This document shows, in pieces, positions 2,304 through 19,716 of a DNA stretch of 20,000 nt. Source of the DNA: an uncultured virus (IMG/VR IMGVR_UViG_3300028416_000010) (taxonomy: Duplodnaviria; Heunggongvirae; Uroviricota; Caudoviricetes); the IMG/VR virus record IMGVR_UViG_3300028416_000010, one strand, 5' to 3'. A model generated the notes under the pieces. The model saw nothing but the letters and a program-made list of their open reading frames with translations. It was not told the origin of the DNA and ran no database searches. Position numbers and translations under genes: made by a program. Positions within the stretch are counted from its first letter, which is position 1; the number at the start of each line of letters is the position of its first letter.

Positions 2304-2377
2304 TATACAATAATTTTTTATTATTTTCCGAAAAGTTTCTATTTATTTTTCTGAAAATAATTACTTTTTTTTGTATA
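2304..2377. repeat. 74-bp dyad, copy 2
   Basis: Same geometry; right inner box TTTTCTGAAAA. Confidence 0.95.
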
Positions 2378-2451
2378 CATATCATTCAAAAAACCTCTCC
2401 CTTCATACAGGAACATATACAGGAACATGTAGGAATAAAATATAAAACAAA

Positions 2452-2520
2452 TAAAAAAAGGCAATCATTTCTGACTGCCTTTTCTGCGTATTAACCATTA
2501 AAAATCTAAACTACTTATGG
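2452..2520 (-). ncRNA. Candidate ~65-70 nt sRNA
   Basis: TATCTTTG -7 box at 2525..2532, then a short non-coding stretch and a terminator; similar to 13088..13164. Confidence 0.4.
2453..2484 (-). terminator. Intrinsic terminator
   Basis: AGGCA/TGCCT hairpin plus U-run. Confidence 0.8.
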
Positions 2521-5121: not shown

Positions 5122-5138
5122 AATATAAATATTTTTAA

Positions 5139-5180
5139 GTTACAATATAATATAGTAAACAAATATCAAACTAATCAAAA
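5139..5180 (-). promoter_or_regulatory. Conserved module promoter
   Basis: TTTTGATTAGTTTGATATTTGTTTACTATATTATATTGTAAC. Confidence 0.85.
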
Positions 5181-5234
5181 ATTGATAAACTTTTTTTGAA
5201 GAATATTTCTGAACCTGGGGGGATTATTTGTAGT

Positions 5235-5308
5235 TATACAATAATTATCTTATATTTTCCGAAAATTTTATACTTATTTTTCGGAAAATAATCCTTTTTT
5301 ATTGTATA
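5235..5308. repeat. 74-bp dyad, copy 4
   Basis: Same four boxes and spacing. Confidence 0.95.
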
Positions 5309-5401
5309 TATTACTTTAGAAATGTTGAGCTTGGATTAACCTTCCAGCGTCTGGTATGGTAAATCTTATACACAATTATCACAAAACCACCCCCCAGAAA
5401 C

Positions 5402-6269: not shown

Positions 6270-6389
6270 TTATTTTTGTTTTGAATTATTAACTGAATTA
6301 TTAATCTTTGATTTTTTAACTTCACTATGAATGAAATTTATCCAATCATTAAAGTTAAAAATAGGTTTCTTCGGTAAAATAGTTTTCAT
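6270..6389 (-). CDS. Small hypothetical protein, 39 aa (MKTILPKKPIFNFNDWINFIH...)
   Basis: First ATG after promoter; stop abuts the next start. Confidence 0.65.
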   Translation of the reverse strand: MKTILPKKPIFNFNDWINFIHSEVKKSKINNSVNNSKQK

Positions 6390-6403
6390 ATTATTTAATT
6401 TTT

Positions 6404-6445
6404 GTTACACATTAATATAGTAATAATTTTTCAAACTAATCAAAA
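6404..6445 (-). promoter_or_regulatory. Conserved module promoter
   Basis: Same motif, upstream of ATG at 6389. Confidence 0.8.
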
Positions 6446-6499
6446 AAATAAAAACTTTTTTTGAAGAATATTTCTGAACCTGGGGGGATTATTTGTAGT

Positions 6500-6573
6500 T
6501 ATACAATAATTATCTTATATTTTCCGAAAATTTTACACTTATTTTTCGGAAAATAATTGAATTTTGTTGTATA
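6500..6573. repeat. 74-bp dyad, copy 5
   Basis: Same geometry; flanks nearly identical to copy 4. Confidence 0.95.
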
Positions 6574-6652
6574 TATTACTTTAAAAATGTTGAGTTTGGA
6601 TTAACCTTCCAGTGGCTGGGATGGTAAATCTTATACAAGAAAAAATGCAAAC

Positions 6653-10451: not shown

Positions 10452-10522
10452 CTTTGTTTTGTTTTTAAATGTTTCCTAATGTGCAATAATCTTTTGTTTT
10501 AATGTTATAATATATAATCAAT

Positions 10523-10564
10523 CAACTTATATAACATAGTAAACAAACATTAAATTAATCAAAA
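10523..10564 (-). promoter_or_regulatory. Conserved module promoter
   Basis: Same motif (TACTATGTTAT). Confidence 0.75.
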
Positions 10565-10583
10565 AATAATAAAGTTTTTTAAT

Positions 10584-10817
10584 TTATTTTGTTATTTCAT
10601 TTATGTAATCAACTAAATTATCTAATATTTCTAATAAATCTAAATCAACTCTCCAACCTATAATAGTACAACTACTTGTTATACAAGCCATACTTCCTCC
10701 TTTTAGCAAACTTTTTCTTACAGACATTTTCTCCCCAACATAACCAAAGTTACTTAAAGATATTTCTAAATCTCCATAGCCATTCGATATGTTTGCATTT
10801 AAAACTTTAAACTTCAT
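10584..10817 (-). CDS. Hypothetical protein, 77 aa
   Basis: ORF after degenerate promoter. Confidence 0.75.
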   Translation of the reverse strand: MKFKVLNANISNGYGDLEISLSNFGYVGEKMSVRKSLLKGGSMACITSSCTIIGWRVDLDLLEILDNLVDYINEITK

Positions 10818-10849
10818 TATGTAAATTATTAATTTCTAAAATCTCTCCC

Positions 10850-10891
10850 TAACTAAACTAATATATTAAATTTAATTAATATTAATCAAAA
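10850..10891 (-). promoter_or_regulatory. Degenerate module promoter
   Basis: TTTTGATT-N15-TAATATATTAG. Confidence 0.55.
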
Positions 10892-10953
10892 ATACAAAAT
10901 AATTAATTCATAGCATCTTTTGAAGCTGGGAGGATTTATTATTTTTATAATGT

Positions 10954-11027
10954 TATACAATAATATTAACGTATTTTCCGAAAAAATATTACAAAATTTT
11001 CTGAAAATAATTACTTTTTTTTGTATA
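10954..11027. repeat. 74-bp dyad, copy 9 (A-rich, apparently inverted central spacer)
   Basis: Same geometry; core AATATTACAAAA instead of a T-rich core. Confidence 0.93.
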
Positions 11028-11109
11028 CATATCATTCAAAAAACCTCTCCCTTCATACAGGAACATGCATGTAACATGCATGTTAAATACAGGACTATCA
11101 TGTAAAAAC

Positions 11110-11140
11110 AAAAAAAGGCAACCATTTCTGATTGCCTTTT
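11110..11140 (-). terminator. Intrinsic terminator
   Basis: GGCAA/TTGCC hairpin plus U-run. Confidence 0.8.
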
Positions 11141-11162
11141 ATGTAACTAAAACTAACTATTA

Positions 11163-11723
11163 TTAACCCAAAATTATTGTATCTCCATTCACTTTTATTC
11201 TATCAATATTAGAAATTATATAAGTTCTATATTTGCTTGACTTCATATGTTTTTTTATATCATCTTTAGCCATTGTTTTTGCTCTTTTGTTTGTTGGTGG
11301 ATATTCTCCTTCAACTAAAACAGTTTTTCTCACTTCTTTAGCAAAGATATGAATTTGCTCTTTTTCAATGTTGTATTTAACATTTTTTGAAATACTAACG
11401 TAAGCATTTTTTTGACCATTTGAGCGATTAGCGTGTTGCTCTTTATCTAATTTGTTTGCTGTGTTATCATCAATACCTAATGATAATTTAACAGATTTTA
11501 ACAATTCAGCTTGAGCTGTAATAAAAGTTGCTTTGTCGTACTTTTCATTTTCTATATATTCAACATTTGGAATAATATCTAAATCTTTTCTCAAAGCGTT
11601 TTCGTAAATCGTGTTGATTTGAATTAAACGACTTGCCTCTTCACCAAACTTATTTGTGTAAGTGAAAGATACGAATTTTGCTCCTTTTGTTTCATTTAAC
11701 GCATTTACTAATTCTTGTAACAT
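11163..11723 (-). CDS. 186-aa protein, copy A; WYL/Sm-like SH3-barrel candidate
   Basis: FVSFTYTNKFGEEASR and YRTYIISNI resemble the ends of WYL-like domains. Confidence 0.9.
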   Translation of the reverse strand: MLQELVNALNETKGAKFVSFTYTNKFGEEASRLIQINTIYENALRKDLDIIPNVEYIENEKYDKATFITAQAELLKSVKLSLGIDDNTANKLDKEQHANRSNGQKNAYVSISKNVKYNIEKEQIHIFAKEVRKTVLVEGEYPPTNKRAKTMAKDDIKKHMKSSKYRTYIISNIDRIKVNGDTIILG

Positions 11724-11764
11724 AACCTTTTGTTTTTGAAGTTAAAGTGATACGTTTCTCGCAT

Positions 11765-11806
11765 CATCTACAACAATATAGTAAACAGATTTCAAACTAA
11801 TCAAAA
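11765..11806 (-). promoter_or_regulatory. Conserved module promoter
   Basis: Same motif, upstream of 186-aa gene A. Confidence 0.8.
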
Positions 11807-11847
11807 AACAATCAAAAAAAATGAAAAAATATTTTCAAAGGAATTTT

Positions 11848-11883
11848 TGAACATATCCCCCCATAGGGGGGGGTATATGTTCA
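11848..11883. repeat. GC-rich palindrome/hairpin
   Basis: TGAACATATCCCCCC-ATA-GGGGGGGGTATATGTTCA. Confidence 0.85.
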
Positions 11884-11910
11884 CTTGGAAAACGAATACT
11901 GAAAATAAGT

Positions 11911-11999
11911 TATACAAAAATAAATCTGTATTTTCCGAATTTTTGATAACAAGAATAAATTAATTATTTTTTCGGAAAATAATCTAAAAATATTGTATA
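11911..11999. repeat. 89-bp dyad variant, copy 10
   Basis: Four boxes with 27-nt central spacer; lies between divergent promoters. Confidence 0.9.
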
Positions 12000-12112
12000 C
12001 CTTAATAGTTTTGTTTTTGTGGAACCAGCATCTGACCTGGTCATCACCAGGAAATCTTACCCCCAAAACAACCTCCCTCCCAGCAAAAAAAATACAAAAA
12101 TATTCACTCAAT

Positions 12113-12154
12113 TTTTGATTACTTTAAAAACACTTTACTATATTATGGTGTAAC
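12113..12154 (+). promoter_or_regulatory. Conserved module promoter, opposite orientation
   Basis: TTTTGATTACTTTAAAAACACTTTACTATATTATGGTGTAAC upstream of ATG at 12170. Confidence 0.85.
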
Positions 12155-12169
12155 TTAAAAACATTTATT

Positions 12170-12493
12170 ATGAAAAGCACTAATGAAATCTTGAACGAAA
12201 TTACTACTAAAGGACAAATTTTAACTTTCTTTTATAGTGTAGGTCCAAATGCAACTAAAGAACAAAACTACTTTGCAGATAACAATAAATTATTTCTTGC
12301 AGAAACGGTTTATGACAATCAATTTAAAGAAGATTTAAAAAAACCAATTTTAAAACCTATATCAAAAACAAAATTATTTAAGATTATAGAAGAAAAGTCT
12401 AAAAAAGAATTTATTGACTTCACAGAGTATTTAGATTTAGAAAATTTAAAAGAAAGAATAGAAGATTATGAAAATGAATTAATGCTATTATAA
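12170..12493 (+). CDS. Hypothetical protein, 107 aa
   Basis: Own + strand promoter and terminator. Confidence 0.88.
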   Translation: MKSTNEILNEITTKGQILTFFYSVGPNATKEQNYFADNNKLFLAETVYDNQFKEDLKKPILKPISKTKLFKIIEEKSKKEFIDFTEYLDLENLKERIEDYENELMLL

Positions 12494-12527
12494 TGTTTTG
12501 AGAATAAACACAATAGTAAACTTGAAG

Positions 12528-12560
12528 AAAGACTCCTCAAAGCGAGGGGTCTTTTTTTTT
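12528..12560 (+). terminator. Intrinsic terminator
   Basis: GACTCCTC/GAGGGGTC hairpin plus T-run after 12170..12493. Confidence 0.85.
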
Positions 12561-12630
12561 GTTGTTTTTTCACAAAAGCACCCAACATAATATAAAGAAG
12601 GTTCTTATATATATTCCATCATTAAACATT

Positions 12631-12704
12631 TATACAATAATACTATTATATTTTCCGATTTTTTTACGATTATTTTTCGGAATATATTTTTAAATTATTG
12701 TATA
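12631..12704. repeat. 74-bp dyad, copy 11 (degenerate inner boxes)
   Basis: TTTTCCGATTT / TTTTCGGAATA, spacing conserved; between convergent genes. Confidence 0.88.
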
Positions 12705-12757
12705 TCTAATAATTTAATTAAAAAGAAAAAATCCATCTCACGGCTGCTTAAGATGGA

Positions 12758-13051
12758 TTACATATTTTCTCTGTGTTCAGATTTAACTTTACTAATATTT
12801 GACTTAGTGTTTATTGTGAAAGTTTTAATGTTTTTCTGGGGGCATATTAACATTTGCATAATACATATATAAAATTTTTCTGCATTTTCCATACAAGTTG
12901 AAACTTTTTTGTTTAGCATTAAAGATTTGATATTGTATTTTTTTTGAATGTGTTCATAAAAACTTAAACCCTCAAAATTTTTACCACTCCCATATTCTTT
13001 TGTCCAATTAGAAAATTCTGAATTAAGGTTTTGTTGGTCAATTTTATGCAT
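12758..13051 (-). CDS. Hypothetical protein, 97 aa
   Basis: ORF; lacks the consensus module promoter and terminator. Confidence 0.65.
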   Translation of the reverse strand: MHKIDQQNLNSEFSNWTKEYGSGKNFEGLSFYEHIQKKYNIKSLMLNKKVSTCMENAEKFYICIMQMLICPQKNIKTFTINTKSNISKVKSEHRENM

Positions 13052-13087
13052 GTGAATAATTTAGTAGAACTATATAATAAATAGTAT

Positions 13088-13125
13088 AAAAAAAAGAGCA
13101 ACCAATGATTGCTCTCCTTTTTTTA
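13088..13125. terminator. Intrinsic terminator, possibly bidirectional
   Basis: GAGCAA/TTGCTC hairpin with A-run and T-run. Confidence 0.75.
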
Positions 13126-13164
13126 TTAAACCACTAAATCTATTGTTATGAAAAAACCACAGAT
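13088..13164 (-). ncRNA. Candidate ~75 nt sRNA
   Basis: Complete Bacteroidota-type promoter at 13169..13199 followed closely by a hairpin and U-run. Confidence 0.5.
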
Positions 13165-13168
13165 GACA

Positions 13169-13199
13169 CAAAGATATAAACTTTTTAATCAAAGTCAAA
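13169..13199 (-). promoter_or_regulatory. Bacteroidota primary-sigma promoter
   Basis: TTTG-N19-TATCTTTG matches the -33 TTTG / -7 TAnnTTTG consensus. Confidence 0.65.
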
Positions 13200-13285
13200 C
13201 ATTAATTTAAATTTTTTTTATTTTTTTTAAAACCAAAGTGATTGTTATCAATATAATATTATAAAACATTTAAAATATTATTATC

Positions 13286-13522
13286 ATGAAAAAAGAAGTT
13301 AGACAAAAAAGAGTTTACCGAAAATGGTCAGAAGAAGCTTTAGATATAGTTGGAGCTTTTATTACAAAAGAAGAAGATTCAAATATTGATAAGTTAAAGT
13401 TTGTGCTGAAATTTGTTGAAGGTTTTGAAAGGACAGAAAGCACAATATGTTGGCAAGTGGACAAACAAAGAAGAGCTTATGGTATGAAACCTAAATTTAC
13501 AGGAGGAAATGTTAAGTTTTAA
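13286..13522 (+). CDS. Putative small DNA-binding protein (Myb/HTH-like), 78 aa
   Basis: RKWSEE...RTESTI pattern, basic N-terminus, own terminator. Confidence 0.78.
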   Translation: MKKEVRQKRVYRKWSEEALDIVGAFITKEEDSNIDKLKFVLKFVEGFERTESTICWQVDKQRRAYGMKPKFTGGNVKF

Positions 13523-13532
13523 TTAAGTGGAA

Positions 13533-13565
13533 TAAAAAGGTCAAAGGGAGAGTTTTGGCCTTTTT
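13533..13565 (+). terminator. Intrinsic terminator
   Basis: AGGTCAAAG/TTTTGGCCT hairpin plus T-run after 13286..13522. Confidence 0.75.
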
Positions 13566-13622
13566 ATAATGTAAATCCACTGGAGGTACAGTGAAGGGCT
13601 GGGGGGGTTATTAATTTATAAT

Positions 13623-13696
13623 TATACAATAATAAAACGATATTTTCCGAAAAGTTTCTATTTATTTTTCGGAAAATAATTGACTTTTATTGTATA
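13623..13696. repeat. 74-bp dyad, copy 12
   Basis: Same geometry. Confidence 0.95.
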
Positions 13697-13785
13697 TCTT
13701 AATTTTAGATTTTGGTTGAGCCACGGTTCACCAGGATTCACCCAGGAAATCTTACCCCCAAACAAAACCTCTCCCCAGCAAAAAC

Positions 13786-13817
13786 AAAAAAAGCACACCT
13801 ATAAAAAGGTATGCTTT
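13786..13817 (-). terminator. Intrinsic terminator
   Basis: GCACACCT/AGGTATGC hairpin plus U-run. Confidence 0.8.
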
Positions 13818-13849
13818 CTGTAACAAAAAAAACAATTAATATGTGAAAA

Positions 13850-14149
13850 CTATGCCACTCTATTTTTTGAAAACCATTTAGCCTTATGGTCTTGCTCTAC
13901 AAATTCCCTCTCTTCTAAAAATTGTATAGCAACACTTGTACAATCTTCAAAATTTTCTAAATTAGATTGATAATCTCTCCTAAAGATATCATCTTTATTA
14001 TTTAAGTTAAAGATATACATATTCCAATCGGCAATAATATCTTCATTCTCTATATGAACATCAATCCAAAAGAATTTATCGTATCTACTATCCTTAACCA
14101 AAACACTCCAACCAACTTTGTGTTTCTCTATTTTTAATGCCTTTATCAT
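13850..14149 (-). CDS. Hypothetical protein, 99 aa
   Basis: ORF before terminator. Confidence 0.85.
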   Translation of the reverse strand: MIKALKIEKHKVGWSVLVKDSRYDKFFWIDVHIENEDIIADWNMYIFNLNNKDDIFRRDYQSNLENFEDCTSVAIQFLEEREFVEQDHKAKWFSKNRVA

Positions 14150-14156
14150 CTTATCA

Positions 14157-14447
14157 TTAATTTAATTCGTATATGTAATAATCTGTAGCCAATAACTTTT
14201 TTTCAAAATCTACAATTTCATTAAGTTTTTTAACTATCAATTTTTTATTGTCACTATTGAATAACAATAAATTAACAACTGAATTTAGTTTATTAATATA
14301 AATACCAAAATCAAATAACAAACTTCTTGTTTTTAACATTGTAGTATTCATTTTTAAGTTGAACATAGTATGATTAATTTTTGTCATTATCAAACCTGTC
14401 AACTCTTCTTTTTTGTTTTCTAAATATAAGTCTAAAATTAAATTCAT
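14157..14447 (-). CDS. Hypothetical protein, 96 aa
   Basis: ORF after promoter. Confidence 0.8.
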   Translation of the reverse strand: MNLILDLYLENKKEELTGLIMTKINHTMFNLKMNTTMLKTRSLLFDFGIYINKLNSVVNLLLFNSDNKKLIVKKLNEIVDFEKKLLATDYYIYELN

Positions 14448-14462
14448 AATAAATCATTTTAA

Positions 14463-14504
14463 GTTACATTATAGTATAGTAAAATTATTCCAAACTAATC
14501 AAAA
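14463..14504 (-). promoter_or_regulatory. Conserved module promoter
   Basis: Same motif, upstream of ATG at 14447. Confidence 0.8.
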
Positions 14505-14578
14505 GTTAAACGACTTTTTTCTGAAGAAGATTTCTGGACGCTGGAAGGTTGTCTGGGGGTGGATTTGTGTTTTATAGT

Positions 14579-14652
14579 TATACAATAATAAGACGATATT
14601 TTCCGAAAAGTTTCTATTTATTTTTCTGAAAATAATTACTTTCTATTGTATA
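14579..14652. repeat. 74-bp dyad, copy 13
   Basis: Same geometry. Confidence 0.95.
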
Positions 14653-14729
14653 TCATATTTTGAAAATATTGAGCTTGGATTAATCGTCCAGTAACTGAGA
14701 TGGTAAATCTTCTTTGAAAAAAACTGCAC

Positions 14730-14761
14730 AAAAAAAAGAGCAACCCTTTCGAACTGCTCTT
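14730..14761 (-). terminator. Intrinsic terminator
   Basis: GAGCA/TGCTC hairpin plus U-run. Confidence 0.78.
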
Positions 14762-14788
14762 AAACTAACAAAACACTAACCACTTTCA

Positions 14789-15100
14789 CTAAACGCTATA
14801 CAAAACTCTTCCTCCTTTACTTTCTTTAATTGATAAAATACAATGGTCTAAAATTGCACACCCTCCTATACTTCTTTTGTTGTACAATAAGATAGGTACT
14901 TTAATATTTCCCCCACTCCTTCCTAATCTTCCTTTTATATCGTATATTTCATTCCAACTTTCTTTAGTTTCGACATTTCCATAATCTAAAACTATTCTGA
15001 CATCGTTTCTCATACAATATTCTAACACTTCAATTAATTTTTCGTCTGTTTGAATGTGATAACTAGTTCCATTGACTACTTTATATCTTACATTGCTCAT
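14789..15100 (-). CDS. Hypothetical phage-type protein, 103 aa
   Basis: GRSxG..K.P.L...RS.GG..ILD.CI pattern recalled from uncharacterised mobile-element proteins; sole gene of its module. Confidence 0.9.
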   Translation of the reverse strand: MSNVRYKVVNGTSYHIQTDEKLIEVLEYCMRNDVRIVLDYGNVETKESWNEIYDIKGRLGRSGGNIKVPILLYNKRSIGGCAILDHCILSIKESKGGRVLYSV

Positions 15101-15114
15101 AATATTGTTTTTAA

Positions 15115-15156
15115 GTTACACTATAATATAGTAAACAAATATCGAACTAATCAAAA
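15115..15156 (-). promoter_or_regulatory. Conserved module promoter
   Basis: Same motif, upstream of ATG at 15100. Confidence 0.85.
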
Positions 15157-15271
15157 AAGTATAAGTTTTTTGCTGGGGGGGTTATTCTTTAATAAGTTTT
15201 GACAGCAAGATTATTTCCTGATAACCTGAAGAAGCGAAGGAACAGCAAACATATTAATATTCAATTTAATG

Positions 15272-15345
15272 TATACAATAATAATATTTTATTTTCCGAA
15301 AAGTTTCTATTTATTTTTCTGAAAATAATTACTTTTTTTTGTATA
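15272..15345. repeat. 74-bp dyad, copy 14
   Basis: Same geometry. Confidence 0.95.
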
Positions 15346-15418
15346 CATATCATTCAAAAAACCTCTCCCTTCATACAGGAACATGCAGGAACATGTAGGA
15401 ATAAAATATAAAACAAAT

Positions 15419-15448
15419 AAAAAAAGGCAACCATTTCTGATTGCCTTT
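15419..15448 (-). terminator. Intrinsic terminator
   Basis: Copy of 11110..11140. Confidence 0.8.
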
Positions 15449-15471
15449 CGTGTAACTAAAACTAACTATTA

Positions 15472-16032
15472 TTAACCCAAAATTATTGTATCTCCATTCA
15501 CTTTTATTCTATCAATATTAGAAATTATATAAGTTCTATATTTGCTTGACTTCATTTGTTTTCTTATGTCGTCTTTAGCCATTGTTTTTGCTCTCTTATT
15601 TGTTGGTGGATGTTCTCCTTCAACTAAAACAGTTTTTCTCACTTCTTTAGCAAAGATATGAATTTGCTCTTTTTCAATGTTGTATTTAACATTTTTTGAA
15701 ATACTAACGTAAGCATTTTTTTGACCATTTGAGCGATTAGCGTGTTGCTCTTTATCTAATTTGTTTGCTGTGTTATCATCAATACCTAATGATAATTTAA
15801 TAGATTTTAACAATTCAGCTTGAGCTGTAATAAAAGTCGCTTTATCGTACTTTTCATTTTCTACATATTCAACATTTGGAATAATATCTAAATCTTTTCT
15901 CAAAGCGTTTTCGTAAATCGTGTTGATTTGAATTAAACGACTTGCCTCTTCCCCAAACTTATTTGTGTAAGTGAAAGATACGAATTTTGCTCCTTTTGTT
16001 TCATTTAACGCATTTACTAATTCTTGTAACAT
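15472..16032 (-). CDS. 186-aa protein, copy B
   Basis: 181/186 identical to copy A. Confidence 0.9.
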   Translation of the reverse strand: MLQELVNALNETKGAKFVSFTYTNKFGEEASRLIQINTIYENALRKDLDIIPNVEYVENEKYDKATFITAQAELLKSIKLSLGIDDNTANKLDKEQHANRSNGQKNAYVSISKNVKYNIEKEQIHIFAKEVRKTVLVEGEHPPTNKRAKTMAKDDIRKQMKSSKYRTYIISNIDRIKVNGDTIILG

Positions 16033-16073
16033 AACCTTTTGTTTTTGAAGTTAAAATGATACGTTTCTCGCAT

Positions 16074-16115
16074 CATCTACAACAATATAGTAAACAGATT
16101 TCAAACTAATCAAAA
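16074..16115 (-). promoter_or_regulatory. Conserved module promoter
   Basis: Same motif, upstream of 186-aa gene B. Confidence 0.8.
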
Positions 16116-16156
16116 AACAATCAAAAAAAATGAAAAAATATTTTCAAAGGCATTTT

Positions 16157-16192
16157 TGAACATACACCCCCCTATGGGGGGGTGTATGTTCA
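16157..16192. repeat. GC-rich hairpin with perfect 16-bp arms
   Basis: TGAACATACACCCCCC-TATG-GGGGGGTGTATGTTCA. Confidence 0.9.
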
Positions 16193-16219
16193 TTTAGAAA
16201 TTGAATACTGAAAAAAAGA

Positions 16220-16308
16220 TATACAATAATCAATTTATATTTTCCGAATTTTTTATAATAAAAATAAATTAATTATTTTTTCGGAAAATAATCTAAAAAT
16301 ATTGTATA
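16220..16308. repeat. 89-bp dyad variant, copy 15
   Basis: 27-nt central spacer; paralogue of copy 10. Confidence 0.9.
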
Positions 16309-16418
16309 ACTTAAATGTTTTGTTTTTGTGGAACCACCATCTCACCAGGTTTTCACCAGGAAACTTCAACTCAAATAAAATCCCCTCCCAGCAAAAAATA
16401 CAAAAATATTCACTCAAT

Positions 16419-16460
16419 TTTTGATTTATTTGAAAATATTTTACTATATTATAGTGTAAC
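16419..16460 (+). promoter_or_regulatory. Conserved module promoter, opposite orientation
   Basis: Same motif, upstream of ATG at 16479. Confidence 0.85.
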
Positions 16461-16478
16461 TTAAAAACAACAAACACT

Positions 16479-16748
16479 ATGAAAATTATATCTCAACAAC
16501 AAGCATTAGAAATTATCAAATCTCAAAAAGGTAAATTCTTTTCAGTAATATTCGAAAAAAGAACAAATGGATTGGACAGAAAAATGATATGTCAACAAAA
16601 AAATAGAGGTATAGGAAAAATGAAATACAATCCTTCCGATTATAATCTACTAAATGTTTTCGATTTAAATATTAAAGAATATAGAAACATAAATTTAAGT
16701 GGTCTTAAAAAATTAAAAGCAAATAAAATAGAATATGCTATAAGATAA
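16479..16748 (+). CDS. Basic WYL_2/Sm-like SH3-barrel candidate, 89 aa
   Basis: FFSVIFEKRTNGLDRKM...VFDLNIKEYRNINL pattern; own promoter and terminator. Confidence 0.85.
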   Translation: MKIISQQQALEIIKSQKGKFFSVIFEKRTNGLDRKMICQQKNRGIGKMKYNPSDYNLLNVFDLNIKEYRNINLSGLKKLKANKIEYAIR

Positions 16749-16775
16749 TCACACGTATCAGCAACGTGAACTTGA

Positions 16776-16808
16776 AAGAAACCTCTCATTAATTTGAGGG
16801 GTTTTTTT
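16776..16808 (+). terminator. Intrinsic terminator
   Basis: ACCTCTCA/TGAGGGGT hairpin plus T-run after 16479..16748. Confidence 0.85.
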
Positions 16809-16878
16809 ATTTGCATTAAAGTCCAACCAGAGTCTTCCAGCAAATCTGGATGGAAACATATATAACTATAAGAATATA

Positions 16879-16952
16879 TATACAATAACAAAACAATATT
16901 TTCCGAAAACTTTATTATTATTTTTCGGAAAATAAATAAATTTTATTGTATA
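16879..16952. repeat. 74-bp dyad, copy 16
   Basis: Same geometry. Confidence 0.95.
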
Positions 16953-17030
16953 ACTAAAATTAAAATCATTGAGCTTGAGTCATCCTTCAGTGGCTGAGAT
17001 GCTAAGTCATACAACTCCACTTTATACAAC

Positions 17031-17063
17031 AAAAAAAGGGAAACATTTTAAAAATGTCTCCCT
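17031..17063 (-). terminator. Intrinsic terminator
   Basis: GGGAAACATTTT/AAAATGTCTCCC hairpin plus U-run. Confidence 0.8.
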
Positions 17064-17091
17064 CTTAATTATAACAAATGAACAATACTAA

Positions 17092-17286
17092 TTACTCTCC
17101 CTTAATCATTGCTTGTGAATACTCAACTTCGTGTAAAGTGTCCATATGTTGAGAACCCCTAAATCTATTTTGCGAATGCGTAGTTACTACATTTAAACTT
17201 CCAACCAAAGTGAAACCCTCTTTTAAATGTTCGTTCACTTTGCTTTCTAAACCTCTAGAATTACTTGATGTTAATACGATATACAT
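17092..17286 (-). CDS. DUF1737-like protein, 64 aa
   Basis: L..KVN..L..G..L.G...Y.QAM.K pattern; sole gene of its module. Confidence 0.85.
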   Translation of the reverse strand: MYIVLTSSNSRGLESKVNEHLKEGFTLVGSLNVVTTHSQNRFRGSQHMDTLHEVEYSQAMIKGE

Positions 17287-17300
17287 ATGTTTTATTTTTA

Positions 17301-17342
17301 AGTTACACTAAATATAGTAAAACAATTTCAGTATAATCAAAA
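17301..17342 (-). promoter_or_regulatory. Conserved module promoter
   Basis: Same motif, upstream of ATG at 17286. Confidence 0.8.
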
Positions 17343-17428
17343 GAATGGTAAATTTTTTTGAGGAGGAAGGGAAGATGAAGTTGCAGCTTCCGTGTTATGG
17401 ACAGTGCGTAAAATTTATAAATTATAGA

Positions 17429-17502
17429 TATACAATAATTTGCTTATATTTTCCGAAAAGTTTATGATTGTTTTTCGGAAAATAATCCTTTTTTATTGTA
17501 TA
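17429..17502. repeat. 74-bp dyad, copy 17
   Basis: Same geometry. Confidence 0.95.
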
Positions 17503-17582
17503 TATTATATTGAAAGTGTTGAGCTTGAGTCATCCTTCCAGAAGCTGAGATGGTAAATCTTCTACAAGGAAAAAATGCAAAC

Positions 17583-17611
17583 AAAAAAAAGCAACCCTTT
17601 CGAGTTGCTTT
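17583..17611 (-). terminator. Intrinsic terminator
   Basis: Same family as 460..486. Confidence 0.8.
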
Positions 17612-17614
17612 ATC

Positions 17615-17731
17615 TTATGCCTTTGGCTTTACTTTTTCGTTTGGCCTTGGGTCTCTGTTCGGTATTCCCTTTCTTCTGCTTGGAGTTTTCGTTTTAGTCG
17701 TTTCTCTTGTTGGTGCTATTACAGTTCCCAT
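17615..17731 (-). CDS. 38-aa basic Pro/Thr-rich peptide
   Basis: MGTVIAPTRETTKTKTPSRRKGIPNRDPRPNEKVKPKA; exactly fills the promoter-terminator interval. Confidence 0.8.
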   Translation of the reverse strand: MGTVIAPTRETTKTKTPSRRKGIPNRDPRPNEKVKPKA

Positions 17732-17748
17732 AGTATAAATATTTTTAA

Positions 17749-17790
17749 GTTACACTATAATATAGTAAACAACTTTCAAACTAATCAAAA
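17749..17790 (-). promoter_or_regulatory. Conserved module promoter
   Basis: Same motif, upstream of ATG at 17731. Confidence 0.85.
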
Positions 17791-17863
17791 AAATGATGAT
17801 TTTTTTTGAAAAAGACTTTTGATTCCTGGGATGGTGTTTGGGGGTGGGTTTGTGTTTTATAGT

Positions 17864-17937
17864 TATACAATAATAAAATATTATTTTCCGAAAAGTTTTT
17901 ATTTATTTTTCTGAAAATAATCACTTTTTATTGTATA
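17864..17937. repeat. 74-bp dyad, copy 18
   Basis: Same geometry. Confidence 0.95.
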
Positions 17938-18015
17938 TATTATTTGAAAGTGTTGAGCTTGAGTCATCCTTCCAGGAACTGAGATGGTAAATCTTCTTTA
18001 CAAAAAACTACAAAC

Positions 18016-18043
18016 AAAAAAAGCAACCCTTTCGAGTTGCTTT
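18016..18043 (-). terminator. Intrinsic terminator
   Basis: Same family as 460..486. Confidence 0.8.
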
Positions 18044-18066
18044 ATTATTAATAATTTAAATTAATA

Positions 18067-18453
18067 TTAAAAACAAAATTCTAATTCTCCATTTTCATCA
18101 ACACAAATATTTAATGCTTGAAAATCATTTATGTTTCCATTTTCATCAATTGTGTAATTTGCAATTACAGAAGTTGTTTTTAACCATATTGGATTTTTTG
18201 CTTCGTCACTTAAGTAATAAGCTATAAAAGTATATTTATTATTTTCAACTTTAAATAAACAAAAGTTTGAAAATTCTTCTCTTATTTCTTTTCTATCAAC
18301 ATTTTCAAGATAATTTTTAGTTGGATAACAAAATAAACCCTCTCCTTTTAAAATATTTAATTTATTTAACATTTCCCAGTCTTCTTTTGTAAGTCTAGTA
18401 ACGTTATTAATCATTTCTTCTTTTAAATTTTTAAGTTCATTTTTTAATTTCAT
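18067..18453 (-). CDS. Hypothetical protein, 128 aa
   Basis: Sole gene of its module. Confidence 0.88.
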   Translation of the reverse strand: MKLKNELKNLKEEMINNVTRLTKEDWEMLNKLNILKGEGLFCYPTKNYLENVDRKEIREEFSNFCLFKVENNKYTFIAYYLSDEAKNPIWLKTTSVIANYTIDENGNINDFQALNICVDENGELEFCF

Positions 18454-18468
18454 AATGTTTGTTTTTAA

Positions 18469-18510
18469 GTTACACTATAATATAGTAAACAAATATAAAA
18501 CTAATCAAAA
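18469..18510 (-). promoter_or_regulatory. Conserved module promoter
   Basis: Same motif, upstream of ATG at 18453. Confidence 0.85.
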
Positions 18511-18592
18511 GAATGATAAAATTTTTCCTAAAGAAGAATCAGACTCTTGGATGCTCAGATGGAAGCTGGAGGTGATGTTCGTTATTTGTAGT

Positions 18593-18666
18593 TATACAAT
18601 AATAAAGCAACATTTTCCGAAAAGTTTCTATTTATTTTTCGGAAAATAATCCTTTTTTATTGTATA
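18593..18666. repeat. 74-bp dyad, copy 19
   Basis: Same geometry. Confidence 0.95.
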
Positions 18667-18745
18667 TATTACTTTAAAAATGTTGAGCTTGGATTAACCT
18701 TCCAGGAACTGAGATGGTAATTCTTCTTCAGAAAAAACTACAAAC

Positions 18746-18775
18746 AAAAAAAAGACAACCATTTCTGATTGTCTC
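18746..18775 (-). terminator. Intrinsic terminator
   Basis: Same family as 9716..9746. Confidence 0.78.
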
Positions 18776-18798
18776 TCATTTCTTAATCTGAACCTATG

Positions 18799-18963
18799 TT
18801 AATTAAGACTAAATTGTAACTTATGCTTTATTTTTCTTGAATACCCATTAACACTTTTTATTCTTTTTTCTTCACTTGAAGATTCTACTCTTCTTCTTTG
18901 TCTTTTTTGTCTAATCACTTCTTTATCTAAAAGTATAGATGATTCTAATAAATTCATTTCCAT
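18799..18963 (-). CDS. Small basic protein, 54 aa, with ArfA-like YxRKxKH motif
   Basis: Hand-translated MEMNLLESSILLDKEVIRQKRQRRRVESSSEEKRIKSVNGYSRKIKHKLQFSLN. Confidence 0.72.
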   Translation of the reverse strand: MEMNLLESSILLDKEVIRQKRQRRRVESSSEEKRIKSVNGYSRKIKHKLQFSLN

Positions 18964-18977
18964 ATAATATTTTTTAT

Positions 18978-19160
18978 TTAATTCAAACTTGCCATTTTTA
19001 ACTCTCTTTGTTTATCCCATAACACTTTAAGTTTAATCGCTTTTTCTAAATTTTCAAAAGACACCTCTTTCTTTTTAATACCATTGCTATAAAAAAACTC
19101 CCTCTCTAAAGCACTTAACTCTTTACTCTCCCTATTTGTTAATGAATAAAACATAATCAA
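18978..19160 (-). CDS. Hypothetical protein, ~58-60 aa
   Basis: ORF after promoter; start uncertain. Confidence 0.75.
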   Translation of the reverse strand: MIMFYSLTNRESKELSALEREFFYSNGIKKKEVSFENLEKAIKLKVLWDKQRELKMASLN

Positions 19161-19173
19161 ACTTTTTTAATTA

Positions 19174-19215
19174 ATTATACAATAATATAGTAAACACATT
19201 TCAAACTAATCAAAA
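19174..19215 (-). promoter_or_regulatory. Conserved module promoter
   Basis: Same motif, upstream of 18978..19160. Confidence 0.8.
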
Positions 19216-19314
19216 GAGTAGTAGTTTTTTTTGAGGGGGGCAATAGATGGATTTAAAGAACGCCAGTTCCAGCAGCTTCCTTCTGGACGGTACATAAAAA
19301 TTACAAATTATAGA

Positions 19315-19388
19315 TATACAATAATTTACTTATATTTTCCGAAAATTTTATATTTATTTTTCGGAAAATAATTACTTTTTGTTGTATA
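19315..19388. repeat. 74-bp dyad, copy 20
   Basis: Same geometry. Confidence 0.95.
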
Positions 19389-19486
19389 TATTATTTTTGA
19401 GATTTGGTTGGACCATGGTTCACCAGGGTTCACCAGGAATCCTTACCTCCAAACAAATCCCCCTCCCAGCAAAATGCACACAAAAT

Positions 19487-19514
19487 AAAAAAGGGAAATC
19501 ATTTCTGACTTCCC
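19487..19514 (-). terminator. Intrinsic terminator
   Basis: AGGGAA/TTCCCT hairpin plus U-run. Confidence 0.78.
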
Positions 19515-19542
19515 TCTTTCATAACTTAACTCAACTTAACTA

Positions 19543-19716
19543 CTATGACTTTTTTAAACTAACACCCAAATTCACTAACGTTTTTGCTACTACTCTCCAT
19601 TTACTCCTTTTAGCAATTGTTCTAATGGCTTTTTTACCATACTTCCAAAAGGCATCTTTGTATTCCATATACAACTTTTTCTCTTCTTTTTTCAACACTA
19701 AAATCATCGCTTCCAT
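19543..19716 (-). CDS. Small basic protein, 57 aa (MEAMILVLKKEEKKLY...)
   Basis: Hand-translated; between promoter and terminator. Confidence 0.75.
   Translation of the reverse strand: MEAMILVLKKEEKKLYMEYKDAFWKYGKKAIRTIAKRSKWRVVAKTLVNLGVSLKKS

Follow-up and report, generated by a model that had tools for sequence, protein, structure and literature searches.

Duplication of a transcription unit in a dyad-rich early-type region of an uncultured marine phage

Introduction

The hyperplastic regions of T4-type phages harbor promoter-early stem-loops (PeSLs), repeated promoter-terminator cassettes that lie between ORFans and that are described as bounding insertions, deletions, and replacements (Arbiol et al., 2010, PMC2839356; Comeau et al., 2014, PMC4122927). 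Here, we analyze a stretch of 20,000 nucleotides (the whole of which is referred to below as the window) from the uncultured virus IMGVR_UViG_3300028416_000010 (Caudoviricetes), in which a module carrying the gene for a protein of 186 amino acids (aa) occurs twice. Each copy of the module begins within a dyad, a nearly palindromic element of 74 nucleotides (nt) in its standard form that recurs across the window, and ends in a promoter leader. The duplication is real, and it probably represents a known kind of process in a new setting.

Two other kinds of repeats invite comparison with the dyads. The attC sites of integrons are about 57-141 nt long and possess RYYYAAC/GTTRRRY cores, and template switching (at quasipalindromes) as well as inverted-repeat exchange occur at hairpin-forming repeats.

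Results and Discussion

A complete transcription unit is present twice

The two copies of the module, A (10997-12163) and B (15315-16469), are direct repeats situated about 4.3 kb apart. A local alignment of 10948-12163 with 15267-16469 contains 1126 identical positions in 1220 columns, and blastn aligned the copies with 92.5% identity over 1216 nt (E 0.0). High identity begins at 10997 and 15315, that is, at the right inner box of the dyads numbered 9 and 14. To the left of these positions, the 43 nt that make up the left half and the core of each dyad are 72% identical, which is the level common to all dyads. On the other side, similarity stops at 12163 and 16469 within the leader GTAACTTAAAAACA, 6-9 nt ahead of the ATG codons of two unrelated plus-strand genes (107 and 89 aa), and the next 67 nt are 58% identical between the copies. 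A preliminary description of the window, made from its letters alone, had already recognized the direct copies, their start at the right inner box, and their end in front of unrelated genes; our alignments and blastp comparisons agree with it, save that copy B extends one base beyond the 16468 given there.

Identity is distributed unevenly along the module. The first 73 nt (10997-11069) are 100% identical and the following 36 nt only 50%; the values amount to 95-98% across the terminator, the coding sequence (CDS), and the promoter, and to 80-92% across 11851-12163. What has been duplicated is one complete unit, composed of the 186-aa gene with its own promoter, 5' untranslated region (UTR) hairpin, and terminator, along with the dyad upstream of this unit and the divergent promoter beyond that dyad. 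The two 186-aa proteins are the only pair matched by blastp (E<=0.01) among 41 window ORFs. Their genes differ at 12 of 561 nt and the proteins at the 5 residues counted previously; with a dN of 0.011 and a dS of 0.067 (dN/dS 0.17), both copies are under purifying selection.

Occurrence in related contigs and in independent samples

The family of the 186-aa protein was found in 74 metagenome loci on 70 contigs, and 49 relatives were retained at E<=0.001 among 90 candidates. Its gene is the only widely shared gene of the region. Two copies are present on 7 of the 70 contigs. In a phylogenetic tree, the two copies of the window are sisters (98/96); the pairs on the other two-copy contigs are split into different, often starred, clades and are older paralogues. 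Since seven contigs possess two copies and their pairs fall into different clades, the retention of two paralogues is recurrent, and the pair of the window is the youngest or most homogenized one. In all five paralogue pairs aligned in the relatives, the similar stretch begins near the upstream dyad and continues for about 110-170 nt beyond the downstream one. It starts within 10 nt of the outer edge of the upstream dyad, or up to 135 nt before it, in four pairs and about 80 nt after the dyad in the pair L016/L039. As in the window module, this stretch corresponds to one transcription unit and the adjoining regulatory DNA.

Sampled words of the region 10500-17000 were present at fractions of 0.75-0.92 in 14 seawater DNA runs and of 0.24-0.52 in 6 RNA runs. 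Contigs based on 31-mers from four runs were compared with the region, including X1 (2018), which may be the source sample of the window, and X8 (2025), which stems from another year. DNA contigs of both X1 and X8 extend over 10500-10993, which includes the odd half of dyad 9 and its left flank; over 12091-13666, across the right junction of copy A; over 15113-15318, with half of dyad 14 (the left one) and the flank on that side; and over 16441-16998, where they contain the 89-aa gene and reach just 29 nt into copy B. The RNA contigs cover the ORFs of the region, both 186-aa copies included. About 14 sites distinguish the copies; at 5 of them, a 710-nt DNA contig of X8 that aligns with copy B has the A allele, and an RNA contig of run X17 that aligns with copy A has the B allele at 6 sites. 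These allele mosaics fit gene conversion between the 186-aa copies.

In X1 and X8, other contigs represent variants with another kind of flank ahead of the terminator of a 186-aa gene: a dyad flank of "type A" is joined to 11103 or 15419 through 24-29 different letters. One X1 contig that joins 13697 to 16968 overlaps by just 31 letters on one side, and was not used.

An array of small transcription units separated by dyads

We assign the window to a hyperplastic, early-type region of an uncultured marine phage, in which about 20 mini transcription units form an array. Its phage origin is indicated by the PHROG matches of 9 of 39 window ORFs (30 are without a match), by the families Kyano_Gp96 and DUF1737, which exceed their Pfam cut-offs, and by an ATP-dependent DNA ligase and a large lysozyme-bearing protein that are encoded by relatives. 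We call the region hyperplastic because, in the 74 related loci, homologues situated within +/-10 kb of the 186-aa gene are lacking for 28 of the 41 window ORFs. Neither the DNA nor the protein of the module matched those of cultured phages, and no close cultured phage was found.

The G+C content of the window is 26% (20-31% per 500 nt), and no tRNA genes were found in it. It contains 20 dyads, 17 of them in the standard form, and 23 copies of a promoter motif of the form TTTG-N21-TAnnTT (21 on the minus and 2 on the plus strand), each located 20-50 nt before a start codon. The leaders are short and lack a Shine-Dalgarno (SD) sequence; an SD-like motif was found for 0 of 40 window ORFs. A generic sigma-70 scan revealed no enrichment (153 sites versus 135 +/- 12), and terminator-like hairpins number 43 versus 4.4 +/- 2.3 in shuffles. 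In the direction of the genes, a unit consists of a dyad, a GC-richer spacer, a promoter with its leader, 1-3 small ORFs, an intrinsic terminator, and a second GC-richer spacer that leads to the next dyad.

The array is a thorough mosaic. Similarities in the left and right flanks, the left and right spacers, and the core, the five parts in which the 17 standard dyads vary, correlate poorly with each other (Mantel r 0.04-0.24; p<0.05 in 2 of the 10 comparisons). Nearest neighbors mostly differ from one part to another, the exception being the pair formed by dyads 4 and 5.

The dyad itself is laid out as an outer box, an 8-nt spacer, an inner box, a 14-nt core, and then inner box, spacer, and outer box again. 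Its conserved boxes measure 10-12 nt, and the outer boxes read GGTATAC(A/G)A... A search with the outer-box pattern yielded 273 dyads in 51 of 75 sequences, of which 207 are exactly 74 nt and 40 are 75 nt long. Among 136 distinct 74-mers, columns 6 and 69 form a Watson-Crick pair in 136 of 136 (A-T 85, G-C 51; expected 0.53), and the three variable columns of the inner boxes pair in 96%, 70%, and 84% of cases (expected 57%, 40%, and 56%), whereas the 8-nt spacers pair below expectation (e.g., 12% versus 45%). Box types, which differ in the inner triplets (CCG, CGG, GGT, or TGG) and in the outer boxes (CAAT or CGAT), are uniform inside a genome and specific for a lineage. The exception is the L017 lineage, the inner boxes of which are degenerate and often non-complementary. 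Folded as single-stranded DNA, the dyad is predicted to form a hairpin in which an 8x8 internal loop separates two stems (z -6 to -8, about -15 kcal/mol); the fold of dyad 9 is weaker (-7.4 kcal/mol, z -1.3). Dyads are positioned after a terminator and before the next promoter at variable distances, and the long 89-nt dyads 10 and 15 lie midway between divergent promoters.

The strand on which the core is T-rich is the coding strand, relative to the 186-aa gene, in most relatives, and the opposite strand in 16 of the 17 standard dyads of the window; the polarity of the dyad core thus differs between lineages.

Homology-driven exchange as the probable origin of the duplication

We consider it fairly probable that the module was duplicated through homology-driven recombination between dispersed regulatory elements, a modular shuffling of the PeSL type. 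The route could have been a double crossover or a gene conversion between misaligned genomes, an unequal crossover, or copy-choice during recombination-dependent replication. One junction would have formed in a dyad and the other in a promoter leader, since units that are otherwise unrelated have no further sequences in common. After the duplication, both copies remained under purifying selection and appear to have exchanged sequences by gene conversion, as suggested by the greater likeness of CDS and promoter (98%) compared to the inner flanks of the module (80-92%) and by the sister position of the copies in the tree.

The preliminary description had viewed the dyad as one exchange point and the promoter leader as a second one, where cargo ORFs are swapped. 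Much of this stands: the module begins and ends within repeated regulatory elements, different cargo ORFs follow the same promoter leader, and the entire array is mosaic. What did not hold up is a special point inside the dyad core. The near-identical tracts shared by pairs of dyads begin or end at dyad positions 1, 18-20, 40-44, 56-59, and 74-80, which are the edges of every conserved box, and they do not single out one crossover point. Of 131 internal ends of high-scoring segment pairs (HSPs) between related contigs, 3 reach a dyad, in each case at the outer edge, another 43 are found at a distance of up to 150 nt, and 85 are located elsewhere; the dyads occupy 4-8% of the compared sequences, and these counts refer to 13 contig pairs picked for having several HSPs, with some events represented twice (L023 ~ L029). 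Members of integrase, recombinase, or transposase families were not found among 39 window ORFs and 126 ORFs of relatives, a set that does not amount to complete genomes. Scattered breaks and the lack of a recombinase family in this set fit homology-driven exchange and argue against a site-specific mechanism.

The behavior of our region is close to that described for PeSLs. Both systems possess small repeated regulatory cassettes, consisting of a promoter and a terminator stem-loop, between the ORFans of a hyperplastic region. In either system, the cassettes mark the limits of indels, replacements, and duplications, and a shuffled gene brings along its own promoter and terminator. Here, the module and 5 of 5 paralogue pairs in relatives end at cassettes, as do 46 of the 131 break ends when a distance of up to 150 nt is allowed, and the ORFan content given above is that of a hyperplastic region. 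The PeSL composite, however, combines promoter and terminator within about 100 bp, whereas the predicted elements of our region are about 200 nt apart with the dyad and its spacers between them. The strictly 74-nt, four-box dyad that is thus inserted between terminator and promoter, with GC-richer spacers on both sides, is an extra component; the promoter is no plain sigma-70 consensus, and the leaders are SD-less. Furthermore, the two junctions lie in two kinds of elements.

A number of observations weigh against homology-driven exchange of this type. Since the module ends in two different kinds of elements, a single excision and reinsertion of a mini-circle formed by exchange of neighboring cassettes, as in the PeSL scheme, does not account for it, and two exchanges are needed. 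Boxes of 10-12 nt and whole dyads that are about 70-80% alike offer short homology for classical recombination. The hint at a T4-type phage comes from Kyano_Gp96 only, with no hallmark gene on the DNA at hand and no cultured relative, and no recombination intermediates were seen in the k-mer contigs. The contigs stop at 10993 and 15318 because the 73-nt tract is present in three exact copies and 31-mers cannot pass it; therefore, the pairing of left flank and right side of each copy is not independently confirmed. The allele mosaics, too, are read from k-mer contigs, their phasing is uncertain across a stretch of about 200 nt that is identical in both gene copies, and the depth of the 710-nt X8 contig (57.8 versus 20-36 in most neighboring single-copy contigs, with no contig over 11151-11801) is not equivalent to a copy number.

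An unequal crossover between dyads about 4.3 kb apart might alternatively have copied all of 10997-15314 in an old tandem duplication, of which subsequent cargo replacement left the first 1.2 kb. The copies are direct repeats at this distance that each begin at a dyad, and the genes after each copy follow in the same strand order (+ - + - -), yet 12164-15314 and 16470-19630 are alike in generic elements only, the dyad spacing is unlike in the two blocks, and the 186-aa genes form the sole paralogue pair among the 41 ORFs. The inner flanks of the module have diverged more than the CDS, which fits an old event with later homogenization of the gene; but many replacements would have had to follow, each by the kind of recombination that we propose for the module itself. 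We regard a tandem origin as unlikely.

The chances are slight that a dedicated site- or structure-specific recombination was at work, with the dyad as an attC-like folded site cut by a phage recombinase and with exchangeable and invertible units. As in integrons, small and mostly orphan ORFs are arrayed here with an imperfect palindrome between all cassettes, and this palindrome has two inverted box pairs, unpaired spacers, and a variable center; the resemblance is one of form only. The predicted two-stem hairpin (about -15 kcal/mol, z -6 to -8), the fixed length (247 of 273 copies have 74-75 nt), and the boxes that are uniform per genome, lineage-specific, and covarying between left and right (136/136 at columns 6/69) are all properties that such a site might have, and dyad 9 resembles the product of an inverted-alignment exchange. 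No intI gene, however, was found among the above-mentioned 39 and 126 ORFs (not whole genomes), and the inner boxes of the L017 lineage are often unable to pair. Integron cassettes are promoterless and recombine at a fixed crossover position, whereas the units in the window have 23 promoter motifs as well as terminators, tracts end at several positions of the dyad, 3 of the 131 break ends in relatives touch one, and on its right side the module ends in a promoter and not in a dyad. The near-constant dyad length also differs from the variable attC length, and the outer boxes do not appear to match the attC core consensus.

An assembly artefact, either alleles of two strains in one contig or a misjoin induced by repeats, is the least credible explanation and is highly improbable, for although this is a repeat-rich metagenome assembly with a 73-nt exact triplicate and about 200 nt identical in the gene copies, at whose dyads the 31-mer contigs end (10993 and 15318), contigs from 2018 and 2025 bridge the right junction of copy A and reach into dyads 9 and 14 from their left flanks and cover the start of the 89-aa gene together with 29 nt at the end of copy B, each copy is flanked by unique sequence that differs from that beside the other, 14 DNA runs contain most of the sampled words (0.75-0.92), and 7 of the 70 related contigs likewise carry two copies.

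If homology-driven exchange is the correct explanation, the duplication would be an ordinary product of modular shuffling, and a process known from T4-type coliphages and vibriophages would also work in an abundant group of uncultured marine phages. Samples collected in different years show apparent traces of gene conversion between the two copies.

Dyad 9 and the apparent break inside the core

Among the 17 standard dyads, dyad 9 alone has the A-rich core noted in the preliminary description (T minus A of -5, compared to +4 to +7 in the other 16). That it looks inverted can also be substantiated: 18 of 22 variable positions in its left spacer and core agree with dyads of relatives in inverted orientation, and every one of the top 15 matches has this orientation. 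Over dyad positions 18-113, the core included, dyad 2 (2304-2377) does not differ from dyad 14, and a three-way alignment showed units 2, 9, and 14 to be 100% identical for about 70 nt from the right inner box onward. In the 36 nt ahead of the terminator, copy B is like unit 2 and unlike copy A. Because dyads 2 and 14 are the same through the core, the break inside the core is peculiar to dyad 9. We infer that an inverted copy of a dyad probably took the place of the left spacer and core of dyad 9 at a later time, a replacement that the near-palindromic form of the element permits; the abrupt onset of similarity at the right inner box would then be secondary. Template switching or inverted-repeat exchange would explain how the asymmetric inner part of such a near-palindrome came to lie in opposite orientation. 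Dyad 9, however, is a single case in the window, and neither an intermediate nor a reciprocal product was found.

Possible role of the 74-nt dyad

As judged by comparison with the literature and Rfam, the dyad is a new part of the system that has not been described before. A scan against Rfam gave 4 matches at E<=1 and none at the gathering threshold. The box sequences, searched for as printed strings in the literature, returned nothing relevant among the matches listed (primers and the like), and no copy of the dyad was found by exact pattern in IMG/VR and GTDB genomes. RNA contigs do not cover most dyads, an observation from which we draw no conclusion.

We tentatively favor, with a confidence that falls a little short of even, a DNA-level binding site for a lineage-specific symmetric protein that would mark unit borders. 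This interpretation is preferred because the length is fixed although it includes non-conserved spacers, because the boxes are uniform within a genome, because mismatches show no G-T bias, and because the dyads lie beyond the limits of the predicted transcripts. A promoter, terminator, or processing site that depends on a hairpin appears unlikely, and we give little credence to a recombination site. It is just as doubtful that the dyad serves as the recognition site of a phage-encoded symmetric protein that defines cassette borders and thereby lets self-promoted units exchange, duplicate, and invert. Were this nonetheless true, the region would be the phage equivalent of an integron, one whose cassettes are all self-expressed, and the chimeric dyad 9 and the plus-strand units would be footprints of inverted-alignment exchange.

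Compared to the duplication, the dyad is the more interesting object, since it is conserved, of fixed length, furnished with lineage-specific boxes, and present between nearly all early units. As an operator or insulator for a phage protein, it would open a way into early-gene control in phages of marine Bacteroidota; as a recombination site, it would define a new cassette system.

Features of the module and further observations

The features of both module copies and of their surroundings are compiled in Table 1.

Table 1. Position and strand of features in and around the two module copies.
Feature	Position	Strand	Remark
Dyad 9, 74 nt	10954..11027		A-rich left spacer and core, inverted-looking
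73-nt tract, right half of dyad and C-rich "type C" flank	10997..11069		100% identical in 15315-15387 and 2347-2419
Intrinsic terminator (predicted), 186-aa gene A	11113..11140	-	
186-aa gene copy A, conserved family	11163..11723	-	
Copy A 5' UTR with hairpin (11748-11766) and promoter motif (11773-11804)	11724..11804	-	
G/C hairpin upstream of promoter	11851..11884		Compensatory changes compared to copy B
Dyad 10, long 89-nt form, between divergent promoters	11911..11999		
C-rich "type B" segment, promoter motif (12115-12146), and leader; right end of copy A	12000..12163	+	
107-aa cargo gene behind copy A, unrelated to 89-aa gene	12170..12493	+	
Dyad 14, standard 74 nt, T-rich core	15272..15345		Identical to dyad 2 from position 18
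Intrinsic terminator (predicted), 186-aa gene B	15422..15449	-	
186-aa gene copy B	15472..16032	-	
Copy B 5' UTR and promoter motif (16082-16113)	16033..16113	-	
Dyad 15, long 89-nt form	16220..16308		92% identical to dyad 10
Type B segment, promoter motif (16421-16452), and leader; right end of copy B	16309..16469	+	
89-aa cargo gene behind copy B, phrog_2267	16479..16748	+	Homologues in 8 related loci
Third partial copy: dyad 2, type C flank, and terminator, then a different gene (2584-2859)	2304..2486		

An AlphaFold2 (AF2) model of the 186-aa protein reached a predicted local distance difference test (pLDDT) score of 83. Foldseek returned no match to it in the PDB at E<=0.001, and VIA-align against 48,161 chains gave a best Z of 4.5, with no solved structure matched; the only match in BFVD is one uncharacterized phage protein. 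Relatives of the protein were not found in IMG/VR contigs or GTDB genomes. A PHROG match annotated as "dihydrofolate reductase" (E 7e-5) is weak and covers a partial stretch of a 546-position profile, and was not taken as indicative of function. The 5' UTR hairpin of the 186-aa gene (11748-11766 and 16057-16075, minus strand) has a GAGAAAC-type loop and is kept upstream of the gene in L004, L003, and L009 through compensatory changes in its stem; its conservation hints that it may serve as a translational operator.

A second hairpin, C6-N3-G6/8, lies between the promoter of the 186-aa gene and dyads 10 and 15 (11851-11884 and 16160-16193). It shows paired compensatory differences between copies A and B, and no T-run follows it on either strand. 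In another part of the window, regulatory DNA has also been duplicated: 5123-5372 and 6388-6637, each comprising a promoter, a spacer, a dyad (4 and 5, respectively), and a flank, are 88-93% identical, and the ORFs on both sides differ.

Promoters of Bacteroidota possess a -33/-7 consensus. In the relative L023, a 158-aa ORF (13804-14280, minus strand) contains a CHU_C type IX secretion sorting domain (E 4e-18); taken together, this domain, the SD-less leaders, and the promoter form TTTG-N21-TAnnTT suggest that the phage infects a member of the Bacteroidota. The stretch 13085-13160 (minus strand) weakly matches the Bacteroidetes small RNA (sRNA) family FopS (34.3 bits against a gathering score of 56, E 0.084). 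It sits in an ORF-free gap that ends with a terminator, and may represent a phage-borne sRNA and a hint at the host.

In the arrays of L004, L007, L014, L017, L029, and L039, genes for M28 peptidase-like proteins (several), PrsW-like proteases, and SprT-like, GNAT, and DUF6011 proteins were found, each forming a unit of its own between dyads. Plus-strand ORFs that run through dyads (e.g., 10920-11105 and 15199-15411) were not considered genes, since the frame in which the dyad is read differs between the window and L004.

The GC-richer DNA of the region occurs only beside dyads, on both sides, and belongs to a few sequence types (A, B, and C). Examples are 11030-11100, 12000-12090, and 13700-13800 in the window and 9850-9930 in L004. 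These flanks are rich in CCAG/CTGG-type words, and often GGGAGAG is present on one side of a dyad, with CTCTCCC on the other side or within the dyad spacer.

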